Source: an uncultured Eubacteriales bacterium
GTDB lineage: Bacteria; Bacillota; Clostridia; Christensenellales; Pumilibacteraceae
Assembly (NCBI GenBank): GCA_900543755.1
Contig: UQSP01000003.1
Location: 2,747-66,746 of the forward strand
Length of the DNA stretch: 64,000 nt
Direction: 5' to 3'
Made by a program: the position numbers and the translations under genes
In this document: positions 6,690 through 60,061 of the stretch, piece by piece
How the letters are laid out: the number at the start of each line of letters is the position of its first letter
Position numbering within the stretch: position 1 is the first letter of the stretch
Notes under the pieces: model-generated
What the model was told of the DNA's origin: nothing
Databases searched by the model: none
Seen by the model: the letters and a program-made list of their open reading frames with translations, nothing else

Positions 6690-6766
<77 letters not shown>

Positions 6767-35328: not shown

Positions 35329-35415
35329 TTTTTGTCCGGTAAACTTATTATAACATAGATTTATATGAACTGTCATTTTTTTTGTAAGGTGTTGCACTTG
35401 ATAGTATAATTCACC
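34330..35415 (-). mobile_element. IS30-family insertion sequence (~1.09 kb) with imperfect terminal inverted repeats
   Basis: The left inverted repeat GGTGAATTGTCAAACCAAGTGCAACAC (34330..) matches the right one GGTGAATTATACTATCAAGTGCAACAC (reverse complement ending 35415). It encodes a DDE transposase with HWEADTV, DRGSEF and YFADPYCAWQKGTNEN motifs. It sits 138 bp downstream of tRNA-Ser. Confidence 0.75.
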
Positions 35416-35491
35416 ATAAATCGGAAAGAAAAACTCTTACGGACAGATTGTCTTTGACTGTTGTCAAGGAAAAGGAATAATTTAACTGCTT

Positions 35492-42206: not shown

Positions 42207-42434
42207 TTTACACGTAATCAAGACATTCATTCTTCTTCATACTCCTTATTTTTGTCATCGGGCGACGGGACGCATTATGTCCGGTTGTCCTTTGACGTTT
42301 TAAAATCCGCGACTGAGTTTGTTTTTATGCCGCGGATTTTTATTATTTTTTTTGCTTGGGTAACTATTAAATCATCTCGTTGCTTTTAAGGTGCCCGCGA
42401 GCGTTAAAAATAAGCCGCGCGGTTAAAAACAATG
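42207..42434. repeat. Copy 1 of a ~210-bp intergenic repeat that is also present at 59405-59620
   Basis: The two copies are about 95% identical over ~205 bp. Each contains an internal bidirectional terminator AAAATCCGCG-N18-CGCGGATTTT, the small hairpin GGGACGCATTATGTCC and CCGCGAGCG...GCCGCGCGG. On the minus strand each ends in ATAAGGAGTATGAAGAAG. Confidence 0.85.
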
Positions 42435-42664
42435 TGAGAGAAAGAAGAGGAGAGAGTTTAAATTGGGCAGAGAAAAAAAGAAACGATGCGGAGGGCAAAG
42501 GCGATGCAAATTGCTGATTCGTTCGGGGGGAAGGCGGCTAGCTTATTACAATGTCGGCGCAGCGTTATTCAAATATGGATAAAAAAAGCTTATGATGCAT
42601 TACAATAAGAGTTTTATGCGACAAATCAAACAGTATTATGATCCGATATGAAAAATTAAGCATC

Positions 42665-43612
42665 TCAGTAAATTATTCTTAATGTTATGTCCTGCGCGTA
42701 GTCGCCGAAGTTTTTGCCGAAGATGTTTATTCCGCCGCAGTGAACGGCGTCGTGTTTAACGCCTATTTTAACCGAAACGTACGGGCTGTCATAAAGGGCT
42801 AAATTTTTAAGATTAACGTAGCTCATGAAAGCGTTGTTCATGGTGGTGCCGCTGTCGGTGACATGCCAGTTGGTAAGAGTGCCGTACTGGGTATGCGTGC
42901 TGGGCCAGTAGGGAGGGTTAAACTGACCCCTGCGACCGCCGAAGTCCCCGGGACAGGTCCATGTTCCTATTTCAACGTCGTTAATCCAGACGGTTATGTC
43001 GGATTTAAAGTCGTTGTTGTAAAGAGGCGCCTCGGAGCATGCTTCGAAAGAAAGCTCTATGCGCTTGATTTCCTGTTTGGCGTCGCGCGGGGGCGCGCTT
43101 ATGCGGTATTCCACCAATCCTTTGGAAAACCAGATCAGCGCGGCTTCAAACCGTCTGGGCGAAAAGAAAAGCGAAGTGTCGTCGTCAAGTCCTATGCGCT
43201 CTTCTTTGCTTACCATTCCGCATGGGGCGACAATGTTTTCGTACGTCGAAAACGAGCCTATGGGAATATTATGTTCTATTTTCAAGGCGTGTTCGTGCCG
43301 CATTTCCAATAGCTGATCGAAAAGCGTAATCTGGATGGCATCGCAACTGCGGTAACAGGTTCGGGTTTTCCCGGTGGTCGTGCAGGTTGTCCCCGTAAAC
43401 AGAAGACCAGCGTTTTCCAGTAAATTTATGTTAAGCGCGGTACTGGATATGGGCTGCTTAAGCGTAAGCGCGATTTCTTTGACGCTCATGCTGGAGAACA
43501 ACAAAAGTTTCAGTATATCTATTCTGACGGGAGAAGACAAGGCTTTTGCAAGGTTTAAAATCTTCTCTTCGTCGTCCAGCGTCAGATTTATCGGATAAAG
43601 CATAGGCAACAT
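42665..43612 (-). CDS. ArsR/SmtB-type winged-HTH regulator fused to a ~200-aa uncharacterised C-terminal domain
   Basis: The N-terminus SSPVRIDILKLLLFSSMSVKEIALTLKQPISSTALNINLLENAGLL is a typical ArsR HTH. The C-terminal domain (...FGGRRGQFNPPYWPSTHTQYGTLTNWHV...) has no family I can assign. Confidence 0.6.
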   Translation of the reverse strand: MLPMLYPINLTLDDEEKILNLAKALSSPVRIDILKLLLFSSMSVKEIALTLKQPISSTALNINLLENAGLLFTGTTCTTTGKTRTCYRSCDAIQITLFDQLLEMRHEHALKIEHNIPIGSFSTYENIVAPCGMVSKEERIGLDDDTSLFFSPRRFEAALIWFSKGLVEYRISAPPRDAKQEIKRIELSFEACSEAPLYNNDFKSDITVWINDVEIGTWTCPGDFGGRRGQFNPPYWPSTHTQYGTLTNWHVTDSGTTMNNAFMSYVNLKNLALYDSPYVSVKIGVKHDAVHCGGINIFGKNFGDYAQDITLRIIY

Positions 43613-43931
43613 TCCCCCTTTTATTCTCCGATTATATCAGCATGCACGGTATCTTGTCAACGAACTTTTTCAGCATTTTTGAATTTCTGTATACAACAAT
43701 ATGTAAAAAAATGGAAAAGTTAAAAATTATTATATCTGCAAAACTAAAAAATTCAGAATTTTGCCGATTTTATAAATAGTAAAAATTTTGATTGATAAGG
43801 GATTCCATAAATTTTAATTGTTGTATAATTTTTTCAAGGCAAAATTATGGAAACGTATTGTCATATCATTTACTTGTATTTATAATATTGTTATATTTCA
43901 ATTTTTGAACACTATAGAGGAACTTTTTAAG

Positions 43932-45668
43932 ATGAGAGACGATTTTCCGCAGCCGCAATCGAAAAGGAGGAAGTGGCAGACTCTTAACGGACAATGGGAG
44001 TTTGCTTTCGGCGACGAAACCGCCGGATTTAATCCTTTTGGAAATGATGCTTATCCTTTGTCTATAAACGTGCCTTTCGCTTACCAGTGCGAATTAAGCG
44101 GAATAGGGGATAAGAACGTGCACGAAAACGTTTGGTACAGAAGGAATTTCGTTTTAAGTCCTATGCTTAGGGAGTGTAAGGGCGTAGTGCTTAAATTTCT
44201 TGCCTGCGATTACGCCTGCACCGTATGGCTTAACGGCAGGTTTGTTTTGACGCACGAAGGTGGTTATGACGCTTTTTCCGCAGACGTTACAAAATATCTT
44301 GTTCCGGGGGAGCAGATTATAGTCGTAAAAGTTACGGACAGTTTGTCTAAGACCCAGCCCCGCGGCAAACAAACCTGGCTGGATCGGTCGCAGCGGTGCT
44401 GGTACCTGCCCACGACCGGAATTTGGCAAAGCGTATGGCTGGAAGGAAACAACGGCGATTACATAGAAAATTATCGCATATCTCCCGATCCGGACAGGTT
44501 GACGGTTACGCTGGATTTATATACGGCTTACGGCAATGCTGACGGGTTAAGCGCAACTGTAATTTCGCCTTCAAGAGAAAAATACACCTTAAACTGCGAA
44601 GCAATCGGAACGGCGCACAAGCTTACGCTGGACGTAAAGCGGCCTGACCCGATTGACGGCGTGCATCTGTGGTCGCCCGAAAATCCCGTAATTTACGGGC
44701 TGAGCATAACGCTTAAAAAACAGGACGAAATTCTGGACGAGGTGGAAACTTACTTTGCCTTTCGCAGCGTTTACGTCAAAGGCGACAAAATATATCTAAA
44801 TCACAAGCCTTTAACAATGAAACTTGTGCTGGACCAGGGTTACTGGGCGGACGGAGGGATGACCGCACCCGATGCGGAAGCGTTTAAACGAGACATTACC
44901 CTTGCCAAGAAGATGGGCTTCAACGGAGCGCGCAAGCATCAGAAGGCGGAGGATCCCTATTTTTACTACTATGCCGATATGCTGGGATTTCTGGTATGGG
45001 CGGAAACTCCGAGCTGTTACGAGTTTTCCGTTAAATCCGTAAAGGCTCTTACTTCGGCGCATGCAAGACTTATTGAAAAAGTGTACAATCATCCGTCGGT
45101 AATAGCTTACGTACCGCTGAACGAAAGTTGGGGCACGGGTGAAATTCTTTATGACAAGCGGCAAAAAGCATTTGCAAAGTCGCTTTACCATCTTACCAAA
45201 GCCATGGACGACACAAGGCTGGTGATTACCAACGACGGATGGGAAAATGTCGAAGCAACCGACGTGGTGACGGTCCACGATTACTCCAAGTACGGGGAAA
45301 ACTTCTCCGAAAAATACCGCGCGCCGAAAAACGATCTTTATCCCATGTGGAAAAGGCTTATGGCGTTCGGCGAGAATTTGCCCGACCTGCCCGTAATGCT
45401 ATCCGAATACGGCGGAATCACCGTTTCAAAGGACGGCGGATGGGGGTACAGCGGGGCGGAAAAGGGGGAGGAGGATTTCCTCAAAAGGTTTGAAAAGCTT
45501 AACGAAAACGCTTTCAGCGGTGTGTTCTGCGGGGTGTGTTACACTCAGCTTACAGACGTGGAAAAGGAAACCAACGGGCTTCTGGACGAGCGGCACAATC
45601 CCAAATATTCCGTCAGCGCTATAAGAGAAATTATGGATAAATTCGACGAAAAGGAGAAGATATTATGA
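43932..45668 (+). CDS. Glycoside hydrolase family 2 protein
   Basis: The likely start is the ATG at 43932 behind an AGAGGA RBS. The ORF in the supplied track begins at 43818. The GH2 N-terminal sugar-binding domain (NVWYRRNF...VWLNGRFVLTHEGGYDAFSADVT) and a downstream TIM-barrel region are present. Confidence 0.7.
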   Translation: MRDDFPQPQSKRRKWQTLNGQWEFAFGDETAGFNPFGNDAYPLSINVPFAYQCELSGIGDKNVHENVWYRRNFVLSPMLRECKGVVLKFLACDYACTVWLNGRFVLTHEGGYDAFSADVTKYLVPGEQIIVVKVTDSLSKTQPRGKQTWLDRSQRCWYLPTTGIWQSVWLEGNNGDYIENYRISPDPDRLTVTLDLYTAYGNADGLSATVISPSREKYTLNCEAIGTAHKLTLDVKRPDPIDGVHLWSPENPVIYGLSITLKKQDEILDEVETYFAFRSVYVKGDKIYLNHKPLTMKLVLDQGYWADGGMTAPDAEAFKRDITLAKKMGFNGARKHQKAEDPYFYYYADMLGFLVWAETPSCYEFSVKSVKALTSAHARLIEKVYNHPSVIAYVPLNESWGTGEILYDKRQKAFAKSLYHLTKAMDDTRLVITNDGWENVEATDVVTVHDYSKYGENFSEKYRAPKNDLYPMWKRLMAFGENLPDLPVMLSEYGGITVSKDGGWGYSGAEKGEEDFLKRFEKLNENAFSGVFCGVCYTQLTDVEKETNGLLDERHNPKYSVSAIREIMDKFDEKEKIL

Positions 45669-47554
45669 AAAAAATAGTTTGTTTTCTGCTTGCTTTATTG
45701 CTTTTCACGCCTCTTCTCACGGCGTGCGGGGGCGGTTCAAGCAACAATATTCAGTTCTGGGTATACGGCTCTTCCGACCAGCTGGATATGTACACGCGCG
45801 TTACCGACGCTTTCAACGATTCGTACGGTAAAGATCACGGCATTAAGGTGGATATCAGCCAAAAACCCAACGGCAGCTACGGTCAGACGGTTCAGGTGTC
45901 TTCCACAAGCTCTTCGGGGCCCGACGTGTTTCTGGTTGCCGAGGCGGAGTTCAAATCCTGGATTATAGGTCAGTATTTCTGTCCCATTCAGGAATACGTG
46001 GATAAGATCACCGATATCAGCTTAGGCGATATTATGCCTACCACGGTTAACAGATTGCGTTACAACGTGGAAACAAACACTTCTCACGTTGACGATCCGT
46101 TATACGGATTGCCGCTGGACACTCAACCCACCGCGCTTTACTACAACCGTACGATGTTCGAAAAAGCCGGCATTATCGAAATAAGCGTGGATGAAAATAA
46201 TCTCGACGCGTGGAATGCAGGCGAAATTGCGGATAACAACGGCAAAATGAAAAGCGACTTCCCCGCGCTTAACGGTATTACCGTGCCCAAAAAAGGCTAT
46301 TATCGCAGCGTCAATCCCTACTACTACGACGGCGACCGCACCCGCGGCTGGATAAAACCCGATTTCGAAAACGGCGAAGTTGCCGTGTTCAACAATCGTA
46401 TAGCCATGAACTGGGATGAGGTTGAAGACCTTGCCATGCTGTTTTCGGGGAGATATAACCCCAAAGCCGGCGAGGAAAATAAAGCCGATCCCGTCACAGA
46501 ATTCGGCACACAGTACGGTTATTTTACGGAGTGGTGGTTCAACTACGGCTGGTCGGTGGGCGGCGACTGTCTTAACGACCTAACGGGCAGCGGCGAATGG
46601 AACTTCTCGCTTCTCGACCCCAATCCCAATTACGTCGTCATGGACGGCACTTTTACGGGAAGGACGGGTACGGTTTACAACGAAGGCGAAACAATAAGCT
46701 TTATTGATAAAATGAATATTCTTTCCGTGGACGGAAAGGACGAAGTGCTTGTGCCAGACGATTACGGTGATTACTATCACGCCGACGAGTCTTTGGGTAA
46801 AGCGGGCATTTGGGAAGGAATTCAGGCGGGCCTTGATGCCGGCGTGCTCAGTCAGCTGCCTTCGACCCGCGACGCTTTCAGCCGTTATCTCAAGCTGGGC
46901 GCCAAAAGCAACGCGGTAATCGACGGCGAAAACGGTCTGGACATTTCCCCCAACCCCTCGACTTTCTCCGCGCGTACTTCCATGAACTATTTCTTCTCGG
47001 GTAATCTTGCGATACTGGCGCAGTCCTCCGTTTACATGGCGGACTTGTCGGAAGAAGCAAAGGCTCGCGGCTTTTCCTGGGACGTAGCGCCTCTTGTCGT
47101 TTATAAGGAATACGAAGATCCTTCCGACCCCGACTGCGACACCGTAAAAGCCCAGGGCAAACAGGCCGGACACAGCAATTCGCTGTCTATGGTCGTGCGC
47201 ACGGGTTCGGAAAAAAAGGATGACGCAGTGCGCTTTATGATGTGGATGGCAAGCGAGGAAGGCCAGCGCATACGTGCGTCCATAGGCTTTTTCCCCAATC
47301 AGAAGTCTTTGCTGCCCGAAGTAGAGTTCAAAAAAGGCGTCGCGCCCGGCAATGTCCGCGTGTTCAGCGAAGCGCTGGAATTTCAGGGCCCGGGCGACTG
47401 GTGGTATATGCCCGATCACGTATGGGTGGAGAAGTGGTGCGTTGACCTTAATGCCGAGGTAAGAAACGGCCTTATGACTTACGAAGAGTGGTATTCGCCC
47501 GCTATCAAGAGGACTAACGAATGGTTACAGCAGTACAAAAAATACAGCAGATAA
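45665..47554 (+). CDS. Carbohydrate ABC transporter substrate-binding lipoprotein (long form, 629 aa)
   Basis: It has a lipobox (LLTACGG) and the SBP family 1 fold. It overlaps the upstream stop by 4 nt. Confidence 0.8.
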   Translation: MKKIVCFLLALLLFTPLLTACGGGSSNNIQFWVYGSSDQLDMYTRVTDAFNDSYGKDHGIKVDISQKPNGSYGQTVQVSSTSSSGPDVFLVAEAEFKSWIIGQYFCPIQEYVDKITDISLGDIMPTTVNRLRYNVETNTSHVDDPLYGLPLDTQPTALYYNRTMFEKAGIIEISVDENNLDAWNAGEIADNNGKMKSDFPALNGITVPKKGYYRSVNPYYYDGDRTRGWIKPDFENGEVAVFNNRIAMNWDEVEDLAMLFSGRYNPKAGEENKADPVTEFGTQYGYFTEWWFNYGWSVGGDCLNDLTGSGEWNFSLLDPNPNYVVMDGTFTGRTGTVYNEGETISFIDKMNILSVDGKDEVLVPDDYGDYYHADESLGKAGIWEGIQAGLDAGVLSQLPSTRDAFSRYLKLGAKSNAVIDGENGLDISPNPSTFSARTSMNYFFSGNLAILAQSSVYMADLSEEAKARGFSWDVAPLVVYKEYEDPSDPDCDTVKAQGKQAGHSNSLSMVVRTGSEKKDDAVRFMMWMASEEGQRIRASIGFFPNQKSLLPEVEFKKGVAPGNVRVFSEALEFQGPGDWWYMPDHVWVEKWCVDLNAEVRNGLMTYEEWYSPAIKRTNEWLQQYKKYSR

Positions 47555-47565
47555 GGAATTGAAAA

Positions 47566-48513
47566 ATGGATTGCTACGGTAAGTATTTGCACGTTAGAAG
47601 CGACGCGGAGAAAAAGGCGCGGAGAAGAAAAATACTTCGGCGGAATCTCATCGCCACAGCAATGGCATCTCCGCCGTTCATAGGTTTTTTGCTGTTCACC
47701 ACGTTGCCCATGATAATTTCGCTTGCAATTTCATTTACGGAATTGCATTCTTACAACCTGTCTCTTGCAAAGTTCACTGGGTTCGGCAATTACGTCGAAG
47801 TTTTAAGATCCGATATGCTTTGGACGGCTGTGCTGAACACGCTTTATTACTGTCTGTCCGTTCCGCTTAATCTGTGTCTTGCGCTGTTTATCGCAAACGT
47901 GCTTACGCGTAAAATCGTATGCGGAAAAGCGGTGCGCGTCATACTGTTCATTCCGCAGGTGTGTTCTTCCGTTGCGGTTACGCTTATGTGGCAATGGATT
48001 TTCGAGGACAATTACGGCGTCATAAACACGGTTTTAAGCGCGCTTAACATCCCCAAAATTCACTTTATGACGGATAAAAACTGGTTTATGCCCGCGGTGC
48101 TCACCATAAGTCTGTGGCAAAACGGAACCAACGTGGTTTTGCTTGAGGCGGCGTTCGTCAATATCAATAAGTCGCTTCAGGAGGCGGCGCGCATTGACGG
48201 CGCAAGCGAAAGACGCGTATTCTGGCGTGTTACGCTTCCCGGACTTACGCCCACGGTTTTCTACATGGTTACCATGAACCTCATCACCGCGCTTCAGGAA
48301 CAAACCGTGATGCAGATCATCACCACCAACGGCGTGGGGCCGGGTTACAGGGCGCTTACGCTTGTGTATTACATTTACCGGATGGCGTTTACTTACACTT
48401 CTACCATGGGTATGGGCATGGCGTGCGCCTTAAGCTGGATAGTCGCGCTTATAATTATCATAATTATGCGCATAAATTTCAAGCTTGGACAGAAATGGGT
48501 TTGTTACGATTGA
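47566..48513 (+). CDS. Sugar ABC transporter permease (MalF/UgpA type)
   Basis: Six predicted TM helices and the EAA-like loop in the ABC transmembrane type-1 domain. Confidence 0.85.
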   Translation: MDCYGKYLHVRSDAEKKARRRKILRRNLIATAMASPPFIGFLLFTTLPMIISLAISFTELHSYNLSLAKFTGFGNYVEVLRSDMLWTAVLNTLYYCLSVPLNLCLALFIANVLTRKIVCGKAVRVILFIPQVCSSVAVTLMWQWIFEDNYGVINTVLSALNIPKIHFMTDKNWFMPAVLTISLWQNGTNVVLLEAAFVNINKSLQEAARIDGASERRVFWRVTLPGLTPTVFYMVTMNLITALQEQTVMQIITTNGVGPGYRALTLVYYIYRMAFTYTSTMGMGMACALSWIVALIIIIIMRINFKLGQKWVCYD

Positions 48514-48526
48514 GGAGGCAACTGAA

Positions 48527-49414
48527 ATGAAAAACGATGTTTTCCTGAACGATGCGGCGTTCGTACCCGCAAAAAAGAAAAGGAATCCGCTTATAGGCTC
48601 TCATATCATAATTCTGTTTGCCGTCCTGTTTGTGCTTCTGCCCACCTACATAATGCTTATTACCTCTTTTACTTCCGCGATAGAGGCTAATAACGCGGCT
48701 TTCCGCTGGTGGCCGGAATCCGGACTTACTTTAAGCGGCTACATAAAGGCGTTTACGCGTAAAACGGCGGGCAATTCGCTTTTGCGCTCCTTCGGCAACA
48801 CCATGTGGATTTATATGCCCGCTACGATTGTGGGTGTGTTTGTAAGTTCCATGGCGGCGTTCGCGTTTGCAAAACTGGATTTTTACCTTAAAAAGCCGAT
48901 GTTCGCCATACTTCTTGCGTCGCTTACGCTTCCCAATTGCATCGGTATAATAGCTTCTTTTCTTATGTTTGACGCGATAGGCTGGATAAATACCGCTTTG
49001 CCGCTCATGATACCCAGAATGCTTGGAAGCGTGGGCGTGGTTTTCTTCCTAAGGCAGTATTTTATGGGAATCCCCGATGACCTTGTGGGCGCGGCAAGCA
49101 TCGACGGACTGGGCGAAATAGGGGTTTATTTCAAAATCATGCTGCCTATCGCCGTACCCGCGCTGATTTCGCAGTTTATTCTTAACTTCATCATAGGTTA
49201 CAACGATTATCTTCCTCCGCTTCTGTATCTGCAAAACGCAAAAATGTACACTCTTCAGATTTCGCTTGCTTTTTTCGCCGAGGCTTACGTTCAGGACTGG
49301 CCGCTCAGAATGGCCGGTTGCGTCATATCCATGGTACCTCTCATCGTTCTTTATCTGATTTCCCAAAAATACATTCTCAAGGGCGTTGCTATTTCTTCGG
49401 GACTTAAAGGTTAA
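48527..49414 (+). CDS. Sugar ABC transporter permease (MalG/UgpE type)
   Basis: The likely start is the ATG at 48527 behind a GAGGAGG RBS. The ORF in the supplied track begins at 48485. The permease core has a conserved DDLVGAASIDGLGEIGVYFKIMLP motif. Confidence 0.85.
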   Translation: MKNDVFLNDAAFVPAKKKRNPLIGSHIIILFAVLFVLLPTYIMLITSFTSAIEANNAAFRWWPESGLTLSGYIKAFTRKTAGNSLLRSFGNTMWIYMPATIVGVFVSSMAAFAFAKLDFYLKKPMFAILLASLTLPNCIGIIASFLMFDAIGWINTALPLMIPRMLGSVGVVFFLRQYFMGIPDDLVGAASIDGLGEIGVYFKIMLPIAVPALISQFILNFIIGYNDYLPPLLYLQNAKMYTLQISLAFFAEAYVQDWPLRMAGCVISMVPLIVLYLISQKYILKGVAISSGLKG

Positions 49415-49442
49415 AAAGATACTGAAAAAAAAGGAGAAATTT

Positions 49443-51509: not shown

Positions 51510-51530
51510 TCGAAAGGGGGAGATGAAAAT

Positions 51531-54500
51531 ATGAAAAAAGAGAAATCGGGAAACAAAGAAAAACGCTTTTCGCCGTATAAGGCCATGGCGGTCGCGGTTA
51601 TCGGAATTCTCATGATATTCGCTCCCGTCGTTGCGGGCTGCGCGAAAAACTTTAACGACGCAGAGCCCTACGACATGACATACGAAAAACCCTTTTCATC
51701 CGCAACCGACGACTTCATGAAGATTGACGGCGTGCTGGATGAGGAAGAATGGCAGGGGCAGAACAAAATGGTGCACTCTTCCGACGGCATAACTTTGTCC
51801 GCCACGACGGTATTTACCCAAAAAGGACTGTACATCGGGCTAGAGGCGCTGGACGACAATATACAGTGGTATATAAGGTCGGCTTTCGATACCAATTCCT
51901 CGTTCGAGGTTCAACTGGTTAAAGAGGGAGAGCCCACTTACGACGTTAACAACGGCTGGGAATTTCATCCCACTCGTAACAGGAATTTCAGTATTGACGC
52001 AAAAACTTCGCGTTCTTACCGTGAAACGCCTTATACTGCCGCGTCAAAAGTCGACGGCGAGCTTAACAGCGGTAACACACGTTCGCTTTCTGCGGAGATT
52101 TTTGTCACGTGGGAGGACATGAACTATACTCAGGAAGAGCTTAACGAAAACGGCTGTCCCGACGTAATCAGAATGTATGTTTCCTACCGCAAGGTAATAG
52201 GAGAAAACAGCGGAGACAACAAGGATATCATTCCTTCGTTCATGCAAAAGCACCGTTTTGACACTTATTTCAAATTCGGTGCGCAGGGACTTAAAACCGT
52301 TTATTCCTCTTCGGTTATGGGTAATGCGGACAACGGCGTCGCGGCGTCCGACTGCTGGAGCATTGACGACGCTGCCGTAACGGCGGAAACCGAAGAAAAC
52401 CGCACTCAGGTGCTTTGGTTCAGACAAGGTTATTCTTCCGACTTTATTGCGGAAACGGATGTGAAGATCCACGTTCCTTCCGACGGTTATTATCCTTCGG
52501 CGGGACTGATTGGCTTGGCCGGGCAAGATGTGCTGAACGTTTACACGGTTGATGGGCGCGACATTACCGATAACGCGGCGGGTAGCAGGAAAATACTGCT
52601 GAACACAGCAAGAAAAACTGACGGACTGCAGTGGCTGGGCGACGTAAGATTAAGCGCAACGGTGGAGGAAACCTATTCTTCCGATACCGTCAAACTTAAA
52701 ATAATCAAGCGCGGCGGTCAGTTTTATTATTTCTATAACGACATATACTGGGACAGCGAGTATATAGATACGCTGTCAGGAAAAGTTTATGCTGGACTGT
52801 ACACCAACGACGGCGCGACTTTTACCAATTACTCTTTCACCGATTATTCGGATAAAACCCGGCAGCTTGACGAAATTCTTTCGGAATACGTTTATTTCGT
52901 GTCGGTACCCGGCGTAACCGCGCGCGGAAACGTTCAGTCCGATAAGCTTGCCGTCAAAAAAGGCGATTCCGTCACTCTGACAGTTTCGCCCGCGTCCAAT
53001 TATTTCCTCACCGCCATAACAAATAACGGCGCGGACATTTACGACGATGTGGCCGCGGGACTTTCCGACGGTAAATACACGTTTGTGCCTTCCGCAGACG
53101 TATCTGTCGACGCAACTTTCACTTCGTTTCCCTCAGAGGCGGCAGTCGACGTGCTTATCCCCGTACGAGGGACTGAAAACGCTGAACCCGTTTTGTCCGC
53201 CAAGTACGTAATAACCTGTGACAACAGGACTATGTACTACACGGGTGAAAACAACAGCCGCGGCAACGTTGTCGTAACTCTGCCCAAAGCGGGAAGCTAC
53301 GAGGTAGGAGGCAGATCGATAACCGTCAGTGGTAATTATGCCGTCAGGATTTCGGCGGAGGGCTATCACGACGTAACCGCTTCGTTCACGCTTAACGATT
53401 CCACCGTGTCTACGTCTATCGACGGAGAAGAGGAAAGCGTCGCGGAAGACAAGGCGTTCACCATGACCGTAAACGCCATAAAAGTCCGTTACGGTACGGT
53501 TACCGTAAACGGCGTTAAAGTAGAAGGCTCGGGCACGCTTTTGTACAACGAAGAAACCGACAACTACTATAGTTCCGCTTCCAACGTCAATCAGTACTTT
53601 ACCTCCGCGGTCGCCTCCGAATACGTGGCGCGCGCAAACATTTCATTTTCGCAGATGGTAAATCAGGGTACCGACCCCGTCGCGGGCATTGGCATTACTT
53701 CGGGCGCAAAGACGATAGTGCTTAAAAGCTGCCGTTGGGAGGAAAACCGTCTGTGCATCGCGATCGGCGACAGCGGCACCACCACGTCGTACGAAATCGC
53801 CGTTACGGACTTTACTCACGATATCGGCGAATCGTCGGGAACTCTTGAGTTTACCGTCGTAAGATATGACAACATAATCTATATTTTCAACAGCGACGGC
53901 AAGCTTAAGGTGTACCTTGACGAAAACGGCGTGCACACCGTAAACGGCTGCTTCGTTCAGGTGGGCGCGGACAGAGTTGACAGCATAAACTCCGACCTCG
54001 GGATTTTCTTCGACGCGGGCGACGAAAACGCCGTGGGCATGGTCAAATACGGCACTACGGGTTCCGTCGAATGGGATATCGACTTCCGGAAAGAGGGCGC
54101 ATATGACGCTGTTTCGGGCGGAACGTTTACTTTTGAAACCGAAACCGAGGATTATTCTGCCAAGGTCGAGGGACTTAAGGTGGGCGACGGGTTCGCGCTT
54201 GACAGTACCGTCCGCATTGAAATCAAAGCCGCAGATCCCAATAAAGCCGTAAAAACCCTTAAGCTTTCCTATAACGACGGAGAGGATTACAAGGAAATTC
54301 AGGGAATATACAACGCCGATACATTCAGCACCGTATTCGAGTTCGTTTACGACAACGCATATACCGTAACCGTAAGCGAGTACATCGATCTTATTGCCTT
54401 TACGGGCACCGTTTCGGCGCCCGACGGTACCGACTTTACCCTTGTAATCATAGAGGCGGAAGGCGTGGGCGCGTTTGAAAACAAGGTCAATGCCGACGGC

Positions 54501-57500
54501 GAATTTACCGTAATGCTGCCCGAAGGAACTTATAATTTCCGATTCTCGGCGGACGGACTTGTTGCATACCTTTCCGATAAAGCCGTGGGCGACGGCAGCG
54601 CGGCGGAAGTTACGCTTGTTTCGGACATTTACGATTTTGACAACGTCGCTGAGGTAAACGGCATTACCGTAAACGCTACCGCTGATTCCGAAAACGGATT
54701 TGCCTTCCGTGCCGACGCAATGGACGGAAACCTGAATTATCTTCCCGCGGGTTGGCTTTATCTGCTGCCTAACACTGTCACGACGGACGACTTTATTTAT
54801 ACCGTGACTATGACTGACATCGAGCGTTTTGCGGGCATGGGTATCACTGACGGCGAGATTACGCTTTCCTTCCAGATAGTAAGCTGGGAGGGCGGCGGCC
54901 AGAATCTCGTGGTGGAAGCGGATTACACGGGTTATAACCGCAACACGCTTGAGGTGGAAATTCCCGTCAGTCCCAATACAAAAACCGATGCAACTTATAC
55001 GATCATCAAAACAGGCACCACGCTGACCGTTTGCGCGGGCAAGGGCGATAACGCGGTATGGATTGTGCGTATTACCCCCGATTCCTACGAGTTTAACGGC
55101 GGCAAAATAAAAGAGCGCGTGCTGAATAACATGACAAGCGCGCAGAGATTTGAAAAACAGAAACAGCTGCTGTCCGAATTCTTGGGCGAAGGCAAAGAAT
55201 ACATGGCCGTGCTGTATCGCAACGAATATACTCCCGATACCAAGGGCGGCTACGAATATTCGTTTGAAAAGCTTCAGACGATAACCGTGACAGGCACCGT
55301 GGCATTACCTTCGGGCGCCTTGGGAAATAAAGGCAAACTGGCGCTTTCTTCGGGCGGAGTGGAATACGTTTTCGATGTATCGGGCGAAGCTTTTTCGATA
55401 GAAGTGCCTGAAGGCACATACGACGTGATTTATAAATCGGAGGGCGCTTCCGCATATATTTTCGACAAGATTGTGGACGGAAACAGCGCGCTTGTAATCA
55501 CGGCGACTTCCGATTTGTACGAGATTGATTCTTCCGTAGCTATTAACGGAAAAGAGTATTTAAGTTACTGCTCAGGTTTAGACTTCCTTTCCTTGGAAAA
55601 ACGCGCCGACTCGCTGGACGGAACCCTGACTCTCGGCAATACTGCGGGTGCTTACGGACTGGTGATGCCCAACACTTCCACGGCGGAGGAGTATGAATTC
55701 TCCGTACGCATGACGGCGGACGCGGGCAACTCCAATATGGCGGGAATAGGAGTGACAAACGGAAGTTATGCGTTGTCCTTTCAGCTTTCTAACGGCGAAG
55801 CTAACGGGAAACGGTTGGTTATAGAACTTGCCGAAACCTGGTGCGGCAACGACTTCGTGTTATATTGCGAATCCGTTTCCACAGACAACGTGTGGAATGC
55901 CGCTACGGGAGTGGACGCCACTATTACTTTACGTCGTTTTGCTGACAAGTTAGAGGTTTACGTCGGCAGAAATACCGTTTCAAAAGTGCTTACGGTGACG
56001 GCGGACGGCTACGTGTTTGCGTCTGCAGGCTGGACGGTCAACAACGCTGACAGATTAAACGCGCACAACGCCGTTCTCAGCGGCTTCTTCGGCGATTCGG
56101 TAAGCCACGCGATGGTGCTTGCAAGCAATTATCTTGCGGCTGCACTTACATACGAATACGATTTTAAGTTTATCGAAAATCATGAATTAAGCGGAGAAAT
56201 TAACGTAAACGACGGCGACAAAGCCACACTTACGCTTATTTCGGAGCGCGGAATCGTCTATAGTTTTACCGGAATTAACGGCGCGTTTACCGTAAAAGTT
56301 CCTTACGGGAAATATTCTTACGCAATCGAATGTGACGGATATGCGCAAAAATCGGGCGAACTGGATTTCAGCGAAAGCAATACCCGGACGGAGCCCGTTA
56401 CGCTGGATCGTTACAGTGCCGCAGTCGATGTGGTGATGAAGGAGTCCGAGTCTGAGATTGTATTCGAGTGGGACGAAAATACTGTCGACATTGTGGATTA
56501 CAAGCTAGTGCTGAAAGGAGAAACTGATACCGTTCTTGCATCTACAAACGACGGCAGTCTTACCGCTCAGAACGGCAGGTTTACGTTCACGGTTTCCAAA
56601 ACCGACGGAAATTACGTGAAAAACGCGACTTATCAGGTAGTGGCAACGCCGATAAGCGGAGTTCTTCTCGAACCTTCCCCCGAAATGAAGGCGGAGGAAT
56701 TCGGCTACGGCTACATCAACGATTTTTCAAGCGAAGCGCTTTATCAAAGAGTAATCGTTACGGGTTCGGGCGTTACGACGTCATATTCGGGCGGACTGAT
56801 GCTCAGCGCGTCCGGTAAAGCCGAAGCTACCGTAAAATCGCTGCGTACAGTGGACACCGGCAACGTAAATTTTGTCAACATATTGGTTGCAGGCAACGGT
56901 GAGGCTACCGTCGCGGGCAAGACCGTTACGCTTGTGTCCGGCAAGACCGAATATGTCAATCTCACCCCCGCCGAGTATGGCAAGGGAGAATTTACGGTCG
57001 GCTTTACCGATTCATTGCTTATTAAATCCATTGCTACCGACGCTATTGACGAAAACAAGAGCAGTAAGTGGGTGGATAATTCGTCGGAAGGACAGGGCGC
57101 TGTTGTGCGCAACGAAGACGGAAGTTACAGTATTTTCGAGCCTGATATAGATTCCAGTCGTTACAGTTTTACGTCGCTTGCTATGCCCGCTTCCACAACT
57201 TTCACGCTATCTGCGCATGTGAAAGTCAATTCCTCCGAAAATGAAGCCAAAGGACAAATCGGCTTTACTCTTTCCGTTCCCGTTTACGACGGCAGTGCGA
57301 GCAGCGCCATATTATGGAACACCTGGAGCGACAATGTCATCATACTGTCATATAAGCCGGGCTGGAATGACATATATATAGGTAAGGGTAGCCCGTTATG
57401 GCTGATGAATGACGGTGACTATGCCTCGCTTGACAAAACAGATTTTGAAATGACGCTTACGCGTGACAACGAGCTTTTGTATCTGTTGATCGACGGCAAG

Positions 57501-59399
57501 CCGCTTGTATTTATCAATACAGATACCACGCCATTATGGAAGGTTTCCGATTCGGATAGAACTGATATACCGTTCAAGGGCGTTCCGGTTGCCGCAGGCT
57601 TCGGTATTCGCCATAGAATAGGATATAATTCTTCTCCCGTCGACAACGTGACTTTCTCCGATTATTCAGTTGTTCTTTCGGCGGAAAGCGATATGGTTAA
57701 ACTGACTTCGGTCGAGGTTACCGGCGCAGGCGAAAACCTTTCGATATATGCAGGCGCGGTCAATCCTGCAAATCTCATACGCACGGCGACCGACGGCGCT
57801 CAGCTTAATGCTTATGTTCCGGTAGGCATTACGGCCGTAGTATATGACGGCAAAAAGGCGCTGTTCATCGATGAAACCCTCGGCGCGGAAAACATAACGG
57901 GCGTTATGCAGGATGCCACTTATATGACGGGTAGCACCTATGCCGATCAAAAGGCATCTGCTCAAGGCGGCGGAACGTTCGAGGTACCTGCGTCGTTCGG
58001 ACAAAGCATGATTCTGCCTTCCACGGCCACCGTAAATCCGTTCGAGTTTACCGCGTACATTACGGCTAAAGATACCTCGGTAACTGAGGGAATGCAAGGA
58101 ATAAGCATTCAGAACGTAGATACGGGTAGCTATATTTCTTTCCAAAGCGCAAACTGGGAAGGTCAGGGCTCAAAAGTGATTATAGACGTCAAACGCAGTA
58201 CTGACAGCACCAACGACTACGTTCTTAACTGTGCAAGCCCCAATAAAATGATTTGGCACGGCGAAATGGAACTGTACTTCAAAATTTCCCGTACCGCGGA
58301 TAAAATAGTACTTTCCATAGGCCCCGACGGCAAAGAAATGAAAATACTTACCGTTACTAAGGACGGAATAACTTTTGCGGACGACTCTTGGACGGTGAAC
58401 AACTCCGAAAGAAAAGCCGCCAACGACCTTAAACTTCAGGAATTCTTCGGCCCCGACGTTATGCTTGCGGCGGGATACTCAAGTTACGACCGTCAAGGCA
58501 TAACTTCCGTTTATACCGCGCATTTCGAGGAAAAGACTCTGATAAGCGCCAGCGGCAACGTTATGGGCGGTACGGGCGAAGGAGTGGTCGAGTTTACCGC
58601 ATTAAGCGGAGCAATGTACGATGCTGCGGTGTCGGAAGGAATGTTCGCATTAAATCTGCCTGCCGGCGATTATAAAGCGCATTATACCGATAAAACCGAT
58701 TTCGCGCTTGCCGATTTGGTTACGCTGGACGAGGAAAACAAAACTGTCACTCTTACCGCTTATCCCAAAACCATGCTTGCTTCGTCCGGGACGGTCAACG
58801 GCATAACTTTGAATAGCGGTACGCTTACCGAAGAAGAAATTGCAGATTCCCGCGACGGCAGCTTCACACTTACCGATAACACATCTAACTTTTATTATAT
58901 GCCGGAGACGGTTACCTCGGGGGCGTATGAATATACTGTAACCATGGAAAACGTGTCCAATATGGCAGGCATGTCGCTTACCAACGGCAAAAGTATTCTT
59001 TCTTTCCAGATCGCCAATTGGGAAAAAGGCGGCGCAAGTGTAATCGTCGAATGCAGCGGCTTGTGGATGGGCAACGATTTTGTGCTTAACGTAGAAGGCT
59101 CCGTAAACAGCTATACTTCCGCTACTTTTACCGTCCGTCGCTACGCCGACAGCATTCAGCTTTATATCGGCTCAGGCGTCGACGCGATTAAAGTCCTTAC
59201 GATTACCTCTGACGGAAGCTTTGTGCTGGAGTCGTGTGCAACTCCCGTCGATCAAGGCAGATATGATACCTGCACGGCTAATCAGAAAAGCCAGCTTGCG
59301 GCGTTTTTCGGTTCGGGCGTTCAGCACATGGCGGGACTTGCGCGCAACAATGCCGATGCTCAATCCGTGACTTATACGGTTTTCTATACGCTGATTTAA
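51531..59399 (+). CDS. Giant (2622 aa) cell-surface lipoprotein with at least six internal ~280-aa repeat modules separated by carboxypeptidase-regulatory/Big-like beta-sandwich domains
   Basis: It has a lipobox (VVAGC). The recurring core is (F/M)AGMG(I/V)T(D/N)G...LSFQ(I/L)..WE.GG...V.E...W.GNDFVL...V..........T.TV.R.AD.....G, ending ...FFG....H.. Interspersed segments of the form TVTGTVALPSG...EGTYD resemble CarboxypepD_reg domains. Confidence 0.8.
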   Translation: MKKEKSGNKEKRFSPYKAMAVAVIGILMIFAPVVAGCAKNFNDAEPYDMTYEKPFSSATDDFMKIDGVLDEEEWQGQNKMVHSSDGITLSATTVFTQKGLYIGLEALDDNIQWYIRSAFDTNSSFEVQLVKEGEPTYDVNNGWEFHPTRNRNFSIDAKTSRSYRETPYTAASKVDGELNSGNTRSLSAEIFVTWEDMNYTQEELNENGCPDVIRMYVSYRKVIGENSGDNKDIIPSFMQKHRFDTYFKFGAQGLKTVYSSSVMGNADNGVAASDCWSIDDAAVTAETEENRTQVLWFRQGYSSDFIAETDVKIHVPSDGYYPSAGLIGLAGQDVLNVYTVDGRDITDNAAGSRKILLNTARKTDGLQWLGDVRLSATVEETYSSDTVKLKIIKRGGQFYYFYNDIYWDSEYIDTLSGKVYAGLYTNDGATFTNYSFTDYSDKTRQLDEILSEYVYFVSVPGVTARGNVQSDKLAVKKGDSVTLTVSPASNYFLTAITNNGADIYDDVAAGLSDGKYTFVPSADVSVDATFTSFPSEAAVDVLIPVRGTENAEPVLSAKYVITCDNRTMYYTGENNSRGNVVVTLPKAGSYEVGGRSITVSGNYAVRISAEGYHDVTASFTLNDSTVSTSIDGEEESVAEDKAFTMTVNAIKVRYGTVTVNGVKVEGSGTLLYNEETDNYYSSASNVNQYFTSAVASEYVARANISFSQMVNQGTDPVAGIGITSGAKTIVLKSCRWEENRLCIAIGDSGTTTSYEIAVTDFTHDIGESSGTLEFTVVRYDNIIYIFNSDGKLKVYLDENGVHTVNGCFVQVGADRVDSINSDLGIFFDAGDENAVGMVKYGTTGSVEWDIDFRKEGAYDAVSGGTFTFETETEDYSAKVEGLKVGDGFALDSTVRIEIKAADPNKAVKTLKLSYNDGEDYKEIQGIYNADTFSTVFEFVYDNAYTVTVSEYIDLIAFTGTVSAPDGTDFTLVIIEAEGVGAFENKVNADGEFTVMLPEGTYNFRFSADGLVAYLSDKAVGDGSAAEVTLVSDIYDFDNVAEVNGITVNATADSENGFAFRADAMDGNLNYLPAGWLYLLPNTVTTDDFIYTVTMTDIERFAGMGITDGEITLSFQIVSWEGGGQNLVVEADYTGYNRNTLEVEIPVSPNTKTDATYTIIKTGTTLTVCAGKGDNAVWIVRITPDSYEFNGGKIKERVLNNMTSAQRFEKQKQLLSEFLGEGKEYMAVLYRNEYTPDTKGGYEYSFEKLQTITVTGTVALPSGALGNKGKLALSSGGVEYVFDVSGEAFSIEVPEGTYDVIYKSEGASAYIFDKIVDGNSALVITATSDLYEIDSSVAINGKEYLSYCSGLDFLSLEKRADSLDGTLTLGNTAGAYGLVMPNTSTAEEYEFSVRMTADAGNSNMAGIGVTNGSYALSFQLSNGEANGKRLVIELAETWCGNDFVLYCESVSTDNVWNAATGVDATITLRRFADKLEVYVGRNTVSKVLTVTADGYVFASAGWTVNNADRLNAHNAVLSGFFGDSVSHAMVLASNYLAAALTYEYDFKFIENHELSGEINVNDGDKATLTLISERGIVYSFTGINGAFTVKVPYGKYSYAIECDGYAQKSGELDFSESNTRTEPVTLDRYSAAVDVVMKESESEIVFEWDENTVDIVDYKLVLKGETDTVLASTNDGSLTAQNGRFTFTVSKTDGNYVKNATYQVVATPISGVLLEPSPEMKAEEFGYGYINDFSSEALYQRVIVTGSGVTTSYSGGLMLSASGKAEATVKSLRTVDTGNVNFVNILVAGNGEATVAGKTVTLVSGKTEYVNLTPAEYGKGEFTVGFTDSLLIKSIATDAIDENKSSKWVDNSSEGQGAVVRNEDGSYSIFEPDIDSSRYSFTSLAMPASTTFTLSAHVKVNSSENEAKGQIGFTLSVPVYDGSASSAILWNTWSDNVIILSYKPGWNDIYIGKGSPLWLMNDGDYASLDKTDFEMTLTRDNELLYLLIDGKPLVFINTDTTPLWKVSDSDRTDIPFKGVPVAAGFGIRHRIGYNSSPVDNVTFSDYSVVLSAESDMVKLTSVEVTGAGENLSIYAGAVNPANLIRTATDGAQLNAYVPVGITAVVYDGKKALFIDETLGAENITGVMQDATYMTGSTYADQKASAQGGGTFEVPASFGQSMILPSTATVNPFEFTAYITAKDTSVTEGMQGISIQNVDTGSYISFQSANWEGQGSKVIIDVKRSTDSTNDYVLNCASPNKMIWHGEMELYFKISRTADKIVLSIGPDGKEMKILTVTKDGITFADDSWTVNNSERKAANDLKLQEFFGPDVMLAAGYSSYDRQGITSVYTAHFEEKTLISASGNVMGGTGEGVVEFTALSGAMYDAAVSEGMFALNLPAGDYKAHYTDKTDFALADLVTLDEENKTVTLTAYPKTMLASSGTVNGITLNSGTLTEEEIADSRDGSFTLTDNTSNFYYMPETVTSGAYEYTVTMENVSNMAGMSLTNGKSILSFQIANWEKGGASVIVECSGLWMGNDFVLNVEGSVNSYTSATFTVRRYADSIQLYIGSGVDAIKVLTITSDGSFVLESCATPVDQGRYDTCTANQKSQLAAFFGSGVQHMAGLARNNADAQSVTYTVFYTLI

Positions 59400-59404
59400 G
59401 CTTA

Positions 59405-59620
59405 TTTTGCTTCTTCATACTCCTTATTTTGTCATCGGACGACGGGACGCATTATGTCCGGTTGTCCTTTGACGTTTTAAAATCCGCGACTGAGTTTGTT
59501 TTTATGCCGCGGATTTTTATTATTTTTTTGCTTGGGTAATGACTAAATCATTTCGTTGCTTTTAAGGTGCCCGCGAGCGTTAAAAATAAGCCGCGCGGTT
59601 AAAGACAATGGGAAAGAAAG
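59405..59620. repeat. Copy 2 of the ~210-bp intergenic repeat
   Basis: See copy 1. It lies just after the stop of the giant gene and before the 3' end of the convergent 60062 gene. Confidence 0.85.
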
Positions 59621-60061
59621 CGCAAAGAAACTTAATTCAGATATTGACAAAAGAAATGTATATTTTCATAAATGCGTGAAATAAGGCGAAAACGCTTGTC
59701 CCGACAGTCAGGAGAAAGTTTTTTAGATAAGACTTACGGGGCTCGAAAGGGAAATGGTTTCATTTATAAAGCAGAGGAAAACGACAAAAAAGAGGCTGAA
59801 AAGAAATGGTGTTTTTAATTTATAAAGACAGGGGGACAAAAAAGTTTAATTTTCAAATACCGCAATGAATATAGCTATGAAAACATTATTATAGTATATA
59901 AGCCGAAAAAAAATTTACTTTTGTATAAAACGCGGCACAGGAAAATTATTGTATAAGGCGTTTCGTTTTGCTTTAAAAAATGCAAAAGCCCGTTCGGATA
60001 AATCGGGAACGGGCTTTTGCCGGAGTATGAAGAAATGTAGTCTATAGTCAAATTTAATTAA

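Follow-up and report, generated by a model that had tools for sequence, protein, structure and literature searches.

A 17.2-kb glycan-utilisation cassette in an uncultured Eubacteriales bacterium probably behaves as an integrase-free genomic island, moved by homologous recombination between the two direct copies of a repeat, R, that bound it. The locus is present or absent within each of two lineages and 96–99% identical between them, and its borders consist of nothing more than a 205-bp repeat. The glycans, dietary or host-derived, that a gut strain can use depend on accessory carbohydrate-utilisation loci; in Bacteroides such loci travel on integrase-bearing conjugative elements, and knowledge for uncultured gut Clostridia is far thinner. 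Islands of the kind described here would escape mobile-element finders keyed to integrases, transposases or tRNA att sites, and short-read assemblies systematically break at them.

Architecture of the repeat pair and the cassette

The stretch analysed (the window) comprises 64,000 nt of contig UQSP01000003.1 in assembly GCA_900543755.1 (positions 2,747 to 66,746, forward strand; GTDB lineage Bacteria; Bacillota; Clostridia; Christensenellales; Pumilibacteraceae). Repeat search, MAFFT and blastn align 42232–42444 with 59410–59620 in direct orientation at 95.3% identity; the alignment covers 213 nt and contains two 1-nt indels in homopolymers. Conservation is strongest in a core of ~205 bp (42231–42434 and 59409–59612), and the two cores start 17,177 bp apart. 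An earlier sequence-only reading had placed near-identical direct repeats of ~210 bp at 42207–42434 and 59405–59620; the orientation and ~95% identity stand, but the first interval includes ~24 unrepeated nt. Homology of contigs L001 and L041 from a second lineage (see below) begins exactly at 42226, the left edge of R_A. R_B starts ~10 nt past the stop codon of the 2622-aa gene, and its left border, TTATTTTGCTTCTTCAT, is characteristic of that copy. The features are as follows.

41176–42159, + strand: LacI-family regulator, left flank of the insertion site
42226–42444 (core 42231–42434), + strand: repeat copy R_A, left cassette boundary (repeat search, MAFFT, blastn)
42260–42290, + strand: hairpin 3 in R_A, imperfect palindrome GGGCGACgGGACG-CATTA-TGTCCgGTTGTCC (-17.3 kcal/mol, z -4.2)
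42302–42353, + strand: terminator-like hairpin in R_A (arms 42302–42311 and 42331–42340, then a T-run)
42665–43603, - strand: ArsR/SmtB-type HTH regulator, 312 aa, first cassette gene (profile/homology searches)
43932–45668, + strand: GH2 glycoside hydrolase
45665–49414, + strand: sugar ABC transporter (solute-binding protein 45665–47554; permeases 47566–48513 and 48527–49414)
49443–51509, + strand: 688-aa lipoprotein with a weak GH43-like match (PDB 4qqs, E 1e-4)
51531–59399, + strand: 2622-aa surface protein with CarboxypepD_reg-like repeats, last cassette gene
59398–59620 (core 59409–59612), + strand: repeat copy R_B, right cassette boundary (MAFFT, blastn)
59437–59467, + strand: hairpin 3 in R_B, same palindrome as in R_A
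59479–59529, + strand: terminator-like hairpin in R_B, counterpart of that in R_A
60062–63316, - strand: GH94/SOGP-type glycoside phosphorylase, right flank of the insertion site

Both copies sit between convergent gene pairs, as the sequence-only reading had it: R_A between the LacI and HTH regulator genes, and R_B between the genes for the 2622-aa protein and the phosphorylase. Sub-patterns of R of 29 and 35 nt occur exactly twice each in the window, where shuffles expect none. Sensitive blastn found no further, diverged copy in the 64 kb, and outside the repeat the A flanks align with the B flanks no better than shuffled sequence does. Judged by the comparison of the two lineages, R is native to the intergenic region that follows the GH94 phosphorylase gene; it occupies that position in both, and it lies at the distal end of a variable island beginning at tRNA-Ser(CGA).

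The predicted gene content (ArsR-fusion regulator, GH2, sugar ABC transporter, GH43-like gene and giant lipoprotein) is recovered, with the regulator of ArsR/SmtB type and the giant gene encoding the 2622-aa surface protein. All seven ORFs were assigned or searched (Pfam, NCBIfam, PHROGs and PDB sequences), and the cassette contains no integrase, excisionase or transposase detectable in this way; the 688-aa and 2622-aa proteins are weakly annotated, the former having no family match in Pfam, NCBIfam or PHROG. We considered a hidden recombinase as the identity of the 312-aa protein adjoining R_A and rejected it, as the protein is an ArsR-type HTH regulator with 1379 homologues of ~310 aa, called transcription factors by their sources. 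The sole insertion sequence, an IS30-like gene (34287–35273), lies 7 kb outside the cassette, and no IS copies occur at the cassette ends. Coding potential of R itself was likewise rejected: 1-nt indels shift the frames and break the small ORFs, so that none is conserved between the copies.

Occupied and empty sites in two lineages

In the species of the window, at least five independent metagenome contigs (L012, L013, L014, L038 and L039, plus one further place) read LacI, one repeat, GH94, without the 17.2-kb cassette. They have the order ...Flg_new-metallophos-LacI-R-GH94... and are 98–99% identical to both window flanks; LacI directly adjoins the single repeat, and this repeat is a hybrid with A-type left and B-type right flanks. 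These contigs come from different samples and assemblers and reach 107 kb. The arrangement with the cassette is found in at least 10 long contigs from different samples; short contigs end inside R, the behaviour to be expected of a sequence present twice. Samples with the occupied allele include ERZ28641041, ERZ28595314 and ERZ28615261. Excision of the cassette between the repeats, or their marking of the boundaries of an inserted module, had been suggested from the window alone, and these conspecific contigs, which lack the 17-kb block and keep one hybrid repeat, bear the suggestion out. Relatives without the block, proposed as a check, thus exist within the species, and the second lineage adds both occupied and empty sites. 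Amplification, suggested alongside excision, finds no counterpart: the junction expected of a tandem or circular form (giant gene, R, regulator) is absent from every contig fetched.

In a tree of the left flank, cassette-less L014 nests among cassette-bearing strains, and the other cassette-less alleles branch separately. No outgroup was found that polarises gain versus loss in this species: even the closest GH94 relatives share just 59% and 55% identity and are followed by unrelated genes (a rubrerythrin-like gene; a LacI gene only 25% identical). The presence/absence alleles and their hybrid repeats are seen directly in the contigs compared, and they fit deletion and ancestral absence alike.

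Among the members of the second lineage (L001, L026, L040–42 and L053–62) is MAG BRZ_LK bin19, the GTDB representative. Synteny with the window holds on both sides (left, tRNA-Ser; right, 96aa-GlpP-GH3-fumarase...), and the right flank of this lineage is only 83–87% identical to the window over ~9.5 kb. Its cassette segment, corresponding to window positions 42226–59557, is 98.8% identical; in another haplotype the part compared (49846–59557) is 96.4–96.8% identical. Homology runs from the left edge of R_A to a point inside R_B, and the cassette lies at the orthologous repeat, adjoining a decayed GH94 remnant that is 70% identical to window 60060–60343. Four contigs have empty sites (L058, L059, L061 and L062) that read LRR, 540 nt, a single R'(1–156), GH94 remnant, 96aa, and this single R' overlaps both junctions of the occupied allele. 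On this comparison, the cassette has passed between two species despite an identity of only ~85% in their flanking core genes, because the related species keeps an orthologous R.

Two other interpretations of the LRR arrangement were discarded. L001 (LRR-R-cassette) is not a chimeric MAG contig, as L026, L027, L041 and L053–62 reproduce it; nor is the arrangement a second insertion locus of the same species, as its flanks are the orthologous region of the ~85%-identical lineage.

Crossover positions and competing explanations

Nine fixed differences between the lineages serve to map crossovers within R. In L041, of the second lineage, each of the two copies bounding the cassette is a chimera of native and donor repeat, one the reciprocal of the other: at column 61 the near copy has the native state and at columns 91–167 the donor state, and the far copy is the exact converse; on their left side these chimeras rest on one fixed and 3–4 supporting sites. 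This is as expected if an excised circle had integrated by a single crossover. The switch falls at columns 61–91 in L041, at 167–190 in L026 and to the left of 61 in L054; in L014 it is probably in the right third of R, as judged from window-typed SNPs that prove to be lineage-dependent. Few SNPs underlie this mapping, in which the crossover is not confined to one short core sequence. Since crossover points vary between lineages and the cassette contains no recombinase, homology-driven recombination is the best explanation.

Under this explanation, homologous recombination between R_A and R_B would delete the cassette and leave one hybrid R, and a cassette copy carrying R would be inserted by recombining with a resident single R. 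The second lineage, with its reciprocal chimeric repeats, shows gain by recombination at R. The donor was most likely an excised circle, entering by a single Campbell-type crossover; with the giant-R-regulator junction in no contig, it is the reciprocal chimeras that point to this circular intermediate. A vehicle for cell-to-cell transfer is presumed, and neither R nor the cassette matches anything in the plasmid, phage and viral-contig collections. RecA may act on R, but dependence on it should not be assumed, given that the best-studied analogue, the microcin H47 island, excises independently of RecA by an unexplained mechanism.

We hold a further proposal only tentatively, leaning slightly against it: that this is a self-contained, 'homology-addressed' island, which would form a circle by R x R recombination and re-insert by one crossover wherever R follows GH94, including in other species, with no dedicated recombinase, its traffic keeping R unusually similar between species. 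If so, glycan-utilisation genes of gut Firmicutes would have a portable attachment site in a plain intergenic terminator region. The locus is, in any case, a concrete natural case for how much interspecies gene flow is carried by plain homologous recombination at short repeats.

R contains two hairpins. The terminator-like one has a stem of 10–12 bp (AAAATCCGCG...CGCGGATTTT) and a loop of 15–19 nt, with an A-run on the 5' side and a long T-run on the 3' side; the size of the loop hides it from a simple terminator scan. Folding energies are -14 kcal/mol on the + strand (z -3.5) and -16.8 kcal/mol on the - strand (z -6.0). The bidirectional terminator previously ascribed to each copy corresponds to this hairpin, a putative Rho-independent terminator: the stem folds on both strands, but the T-run is convincing in the + direction only, the minus-strand tail having only 4 U, and the 15–19-nt loop is atypical. 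In the second lineage an A.C mismatch of this stem becomes G-C, with three further changes in the loop, and the internal G.G loop of hairpin 3 becomes a closed G-C pair. The interval of the L041 integration crossover falls within hairpin 3 and coincides with its palindrome, a possible protein-binding site.

It is unlikely, but worth weighing, that a host-encoded recombinase, or a RecA-independent activity like the one described for the H47 island, acts on the R palindrome (GGGCGACGGGACG-CATTA-TGTCCGGTTGTCC), which would make R a true attL/attR pair served by a borrowed host enzyme. Columns 61–91 of L041 do contain the left arm and loop of the palindrome, hairpin 3 is strongly structured, and, as H47 demonstrates, an island with long repeats and no recombinase of its own can move independently of RecA (PMC3191183, PMC5426353). 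The switches elsewhere in R (L026, 167–190; L054, left of 61; L014, probably the right third) argue against it, as does the lack of a recombinase in the cassette, and the IS30-like gene (34287–35273) is missing from many strains with the same alleles. Gene conversion after integration could blur the switch-point argument either way.

R might instead be conserved for a function of its own, as a shared terminator, a small RNA derived from a 3'-UTR or the relic of a leader that once preceded a minus-strand gene now lost, with recombination a side effect; this is quite improbable, although compatible with homology-driven movement. The two hairpins are well folded, changes between the lineages improve stems or fall in loops, and R(1–156) is 91% identical between lineages compared with 83–87% for neighbouring coding DNA. 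That excess is equally explained by repeated exchange of R during cassette traffic. Rfam gives no match at gathering score for the whole window or in E-value mode for the repeat (best 18 bits against a 50-bit threshold), and RNAalifold of eight R copies finds no covariation because the sequences are too similar. The 10- and 46-codon antisense ORFs expected after the minus-strand ribosome-binding site and ATG (AAGGAGTATGAAGAAG) are present; the relic leader proposed from them fares poorly, as the Shine-Dalgarno sequence AAGGAG is AAGAAA in the second lineage and the right two thirds of R_B are missing in one strain (L019). The native R' of the second lineage also lacks the last ~50 nt.

That R is a dispersed mobile or REP-like element or a MITE, landed independently at two sites with the cassette polymorphism incidental, is highly improbable. 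Three different left neighbours of R (LacI, the giant gene and LRR) and a 113-bp partial tandem duplication in one strain (L032) would suit such an element, but all contexts trace back to a single orthologous site, the one that follows GH94 or what remains of it. With only two copies and no diverged copy in the 64 kb, R has neither terminal inverted repeats nor a target-site duplication, only internal hairpins and AT-rich 8–9-mers, and it matches nothing in the viral, plasmid or phage collections. An R 22-mer hits a single contig across 185,579 GTDB species representatives, and each of three cassette-less assemblies likewise yields exactly one; the count, made in metagenome assemblies rather than complete genomes, is two copies for an occupied genome and one for an empty assembly. 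The dispersed REP-like or small-RNA family entertained by the sequence-only reading is contradicted by these counts and by the Rfam result; clearly, there are not dozens of copies, and the locus does vary in structure.

All of the evidence is drawn from metagenome assemblies, in which 200-bp repeats can be resolved wrongly, and SNP mosaics near contig ends (L003, L005 and L010) may be assembler mixtures. Several contigs have low coverage (5–8x) and assemblers do break at R, but there is next to no chance that the cassette-less contigs are false joins over a collapsed repeat, as the same join appears in SPAdes-, MEGAHIT- and Logan-type assemblies from at least five samples of one lineage and six of the other, the converse false join (giant-R-regulator) appears nowhere, the empty alleles have features of their own (a GTAGAC insertion, additional spacer units of 60 nt and a deletion of 240 nt), and cassette-less assemblies contain no second contig with the R 22-mer.

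Comparison with known mobile loci

Polysaccharide-utilisation loci of gut Bacteroides are carried on integrase-dependent islands or ICEs with tyrosine or serine recombinases, conjugation genes and short att cores, often in tRNA genes. The cassette resembles them in serving glycan utilisation as an accessory locus, in moving horizontally among gut bacteria and in being polymorphic in presence; recombinase, conjugation genes and short att cores are all absent here. In Campbell-type integration, as in RecA-mediated insertion of IS26 translocatable units, a circle with one copy recombines with a resident copy, which leaves the insert between two direct copies that are reciprocal chimeras. The shared sequence here is not an IS and encodes nothing, and there is no replicon or transposase.

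Neisseria minimal mobile elements are likewise cassettes without mobility genes, which strains and species acquire, lose and exchange by homologous recombination in conserved flanking DNA, with a defined 'empty' state and alternative occupants at each site (discussed in PMC1797815, PMC3787668). Their arms are two different conserved genes, used in a double crossover after natural transformation, whereas both arms here are copies of one sequence, so that intramolecular excision and single-crossover re-insertion are additionally possible.

The closest precedent is the microcin H47 island of Escherichia coli, a small island with long imperfect direct repeats (13 kb for H47, 17 kb here; PMC3191183, PMC5426353). 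Like the cassette, it encodes no integrase or excisionase, leaves empty sites with a hybrid repeat ('attC') in other strains, recombines in several different identity segments and uses a repeat that pre-exists in genomes without the island. Excision and integration of the H47 island were shown experimentally in cells and are RecA-independent (Azpiroz, Bascuas & Lavina 2011, PMC3191183; Azpiroz & Lavina 2017, PMC5426353), whereas movement here is read from metagenome sequence. The present case differs further in its cargo, a CAZyme/ABC-transporter locus of uncultured gut Clostridia; in a repeat that is identifiable as the native intergenic/terminator region downstream of GH94; and in the documented exchange across ~85%-identical lineages with reciprocal chimeric repeats.

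The repeat pair and its anatomy

The 17.2-kb sugar-utilisation cassette, which runs from an HTH regulator through a 'giant' 2622-aa gene, lies between two copies of an intergenic repeat of about 205 bp (R; left copy R_A, right copy R_B) in direct orientation, with a start-to-start distance of 17,177 bp. The near-identical direct repeats described in the sequence-only reading are real: 42232-42444 and 59410-59620 are 95.3% identical over 213 nt (MAFFT, blastn); the start given there for R_A, 42207, was about 24 nt too far left. A repeat search returned the pair as two adjoining families divided by 1-nt indels (42250-42352 and 59427-59529, 99%; 42338-42444 and 59514-59620, 90%). Sub-patterns of R of 29 and 35 nt each occur exactly twice in the window and never in shuffles, sensitive blastn found no third, diverged copy in the window, and the DNA of the two sites has no homology beyond the repeat. 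The neighbours of both copies and the hairpins are as follows.

41176-42159 (+), LacI, left of R_A
42260-42290, + strand reading, hairpin 3, an imperfect palindrome with 13-bp arms (-17.3 kcal/mol, z -4.2)
42302-42353, hairpin with a 10-12-bp stem and a 15-19-nt loop, AAAA before and TTTTTATTATTTTTTTT after (z -3.5 on +, -6.0 on -)
42665-43603 (-), HTH regulator, right of R_A
51531-59399 (+), 2622-aa gene, left of R_B
60062-63316 (-), GH94/SOGP-type phosphorylase, right of R_B

R is native sequence downstream of GH94 and is probably the transcription terminator of that region. Its GC-rich segment folds no better than shuffles; R gave no Rfam match, no covariation and no terminal inverted repeats, and there is no reading frame common to R_A and R_B. 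The antisense AAGGAGTATG, previously taken as a sign of a relic leader, is present in the window, but it is replaced by AAGAAATATG in a second lineage of relatives and is therefore not a conserved feature, which leaves that reading without support. Between the lineages, columns 1-156 of R are 91% identical, above the neighbouring coding DNA; the changes close one G.G internal loop and one A.C mismatch, and the others fall in loops. The raised similarity fits either repeated replacement of R during exchange or functional constraint on the hairpins.

The window also holds other repeats: five tandem units of 38/39 nt at 29164-29351, where two variants alternate to give a super-unit of 77 nt (87-97% matches), intergenic and upstream of the ORF at 29695-30714; a 225-nt tandem duplication at 796-1221 (1.9 copies, 93%); and, at 6743-7001, a tandem repeat of 114 nt (2.3 copies, 93%) that starts in or beside the tRNA at 6693-6766.

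Occupied and cassette-less alleles in two lineages

We scanned public collections (GTDB species representatives and a metagenome collection) with a 22-mer from R. It was found in one contig among the species representatives (L001, from MAG 'uncultured Clostridia bacterium' BRZ_LK bin19) and in three contigs of the metagenome collection (L012, L013 and L014), one per assembly; the source record of L013 is human gut metagenome. These three match the window at 98-99% over 37-42.4 kb and then continue straight to 59.4/59.7-64 kb, in the order LacI - single R - GH94, with the cassette absent. A look-up of one GH94 sequence variant found the same order on L038 (a 107-kb contig), L039 and one more place. 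The single R has a left flank of copy-A type and a right flank of copy-B type in all of these, and the proposed comparison with relatives lacking the 17-kb block yields conspecific contigs that keep one hybrid R. The suggestion that R belongs to a dispersed family is not supported, given two copies in the window and one 22-mer contig per cassette-less assembly. The occupied arrangement of the window recurs on at least ten long contigs from other samples, and where a short contig includes LacI, the regulator or GH94 it usually stops within R, as expected of a two-copy repeat. Neighbour-joining on 2 kb of left flank places L014 among cassette-bearing strains, with L013 and L038/39 branching apart; this tree, itself subject to recombination, suggests more than one event of cassette presence or absence. 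Cassette-less strains of the window's species may reflect either deletion or never having had the cassette, outgroups being too distant to tell.

In L001, R and the cassette are joined on the left not to LacI but to the gene of a leucine-rich-repeat (LRR) protein; a chimeric contig is ruled out by recurrence of the arrangement in L026 and L027. A look-up of one variant of the 2622-aa protein led to contigs with the whole unit (L041, 86 kb; L040, from the assembly of L001; L042), ordered LRR - R - regulator...giant - R'(1-156) - 96aa - GlpP - GH3 - fumarase, where R' is the native R of the second lineage. The 96aa-GlpP-GH3-fumarase block of the window's species is found on cassette-carrying contigs, about 21 kb past GH94 (L048 and L030 being linked as one scaffold, L052 and L032 as one contig); its gene order is conserved with L040/L041 over about 9.5 kb, at only 83-87% identity. 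On the left, window 33619-34192 aligns at 76% with cassette-less second-lineage contigs, both ending at tRNA-Ser(CGA), and the 284 nt directly 3' of R' (L041 18017-18300; about 9704-9987 in L053-L062) share 70% identity with the 3' end of GH94. With left, R-side and right markers shared, the two lineages are therefore syntenic, in the common order acetyltransferase - tRNA-Ser - variable island - R - (cassette - R) - GH94/remnant - ... - 96aa-GlpP-GH3. Their divergence places them well below the usual species boundary.

Against these diverged flanks (about 85% identical), the cassette is 96.4-98.8% identical between lineages, which means that precisely the unit bounded by R was recently exchanged by horizontal transfer. 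L041 696-18028 matches window 42226-59557 at 98.8% (96-100% in each 500-nt bin), with homology running from the left edge of R_A to inside R_B.

The second lineage has lost the GH94/SOGP locus. This beta-1,2-glucan-type locus of about 20 kb (two binding proteins, permeases, DUF5696, two PF10091 'glycoamylase' genes and a MalK-like ATPase) lies between GH94 and the 96aa-GlpP-GH3 genes in the window's species; the second lineage lacks all of it except for the GH94 remnant.

For the cassette gene adjoining R_A there is a weak winged-helix match of ArsR/SmtB type, and its protein family (1379 proteins detected, about 310 aa) carries transcription-factor names in the source records; a 688-aa lipoprotein has a weak GH43 match, and the other genes encode GH2, a sugar ABC transporter and the giant surface protein. 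The sole nearby transposase gene, which is IS30-like (rve domain; 34287-35273, -), lies 7 kb away from the cassette, directly after tRNA-Ser(CGA) (34102-34192), and is bounded by imperfect terminal inverted repeats of 48 nt (34322-34369 and 35376-35423); some strains have it and others do not (L001, L029 and L030), and several strains with the same alleles lack it. Neither R nor the cassette had a match in the plasmid, phage and viral-contig collections searched.

The interval from tRNA-Ser(CGA) to R_A is an island whose gene content varies by strain and lineage. Upstream of LRR, one second-lineage strain (L026 154-7879) has a gene resembling rolling-circle Rep (REP_ORF2-G2P), restriction-modification genes of DpnII type (two methyltransferases, Mrr_cat and DpnII) and a 756-aa uncharacterised protein; L055 and L056 have KilA-N, DEAD-box helicase and DUF3825 genes at this position. 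A second repeat-mediated indel near the cassette lies at window 36542-36673, where L015, otherwise 100% identical, has two 141-bp direct repeats (3577-3717 and 5358-5498, 94% identical) enclosing about 1.65 kb with small ORFs, an HTH_3 ORF among them. Only one repeat copy is present in the window; the 1.65 kb is missing, and its absence appears to join ORFs 36206-36601 and 36495-37175; L014 also lacks window 36260-37022.

Crossovers within the repeat

Among the matches listed for the second lineage's 96-aa protein, the cassette is absent at six of ten places. Four contigs (L058, L059, L061 and L062) have a single R'(1-156) in the LRR-96aa gap, whose left 694 nt correspond to the near junction of L041 and right 446 nt to the far junction, overlapping by 160 nt of R'; L055 and L056 have an additional 240-nt deletion. 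Alleles with and without the cassette, with hybrid single repeats, are thus present in two lineages.

Nine fixed differences separate native R' from the window copies. In one haplotype, L041, the two repeats are reciprocal chimeras: the near copy has the native state at column 61 and the window's state at 91-167, with an R_A-type right flank; in the far copy column 61 has the window's state and 91-167 the native one, with an R_B-type left border. Such a pattern is given by a giant-R-regulator circle recombining once with a resident R. Excision by R_A x R_B recombination would yield a circle with this junction, and one crossover with a resident R would set the cassette between reciprocally chimeric copies. 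A linear fragment would have to cross over twice within the same interval of about 30 nt to produce the L041 chimeras, and is less likely. A single fixed core site is argued against by switch points that differ among haplotypes, lying in the more diverged one at columns 167-190 (L026 near copy) and left of column 61 (L054 far copy).

Crossover points are variable and no recombinase is found among the cassette genes. We infer that the cassette reactions are RecA-type homologous recombination, that the excised circle is the transferred form and that it has a means of cell-to-cell transfer. The natural variants support the earlier proposal of repeat-driven excision or module boundaries.

Further rearrangements show that the R site is recombination-prone. 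In one cassette-bearing strain (L019, at 13529) 319 bp are deleted (window 59470-59788): some of the spacer, together with the right-hand two thirds of R_B, where the terminator-like hairpin lies. Another (L032 11370-11487, copy-A position) has a 113-bp partial tandem duplication, R1-119 then R7-220, whose junction ATTTTGCTTCTTCAT is identical to the window's left border of R_B; that border may derive from a similar tandem junction. SNP haplotypes inside R are mosaic among copies and strains, of which copies at contig ends could reflect assembler mixing. The R-GH94 spacer holds a unit of about 60 nt (..TAATAAATGCGG.CAGGACGGCGAAAACGCT..CCGACAG..), with one copy in the window (about 59650-59710) and two to three in cassette-less L012 and L013 (L013 5115-5238 and 5413-5460).

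Comparison with known systems

Neither the cassette nor R has the defining features of integrase-type islands and ICEs, IS-bounded units, REP/MITE families or known RNA families. The architecture is that of the 13-kb microcin H47 island of E. coli, which has extensive imperfect direct repeats at its ends and lacks a recombinase, with hybrid 'attC' sites in other strains and recombination spread over several segments of identity (PMC3191183); that island is excised independently of RecA, by an unexplained mechanism (PMC5426353). Another parallel is with the minimal mobile elements of Neisseria, whose movement relies on homologous recombination between conserved flanking sequences (PMC1797815, PMC3787668); unlike in those elements, both arms here are copies of one sequence. 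We file the cassette as a recombinase-less island bounded by long direct repeats, here in uncultured human-gut Clostridia and with glycan-utilisation cargo. The mechanism is conventional in principle; natural variants document the case unusually well, and the comparative evidence for between-species exchange is unusually clean. Islands bounded in this way are a blind spot of mobile-element detection.
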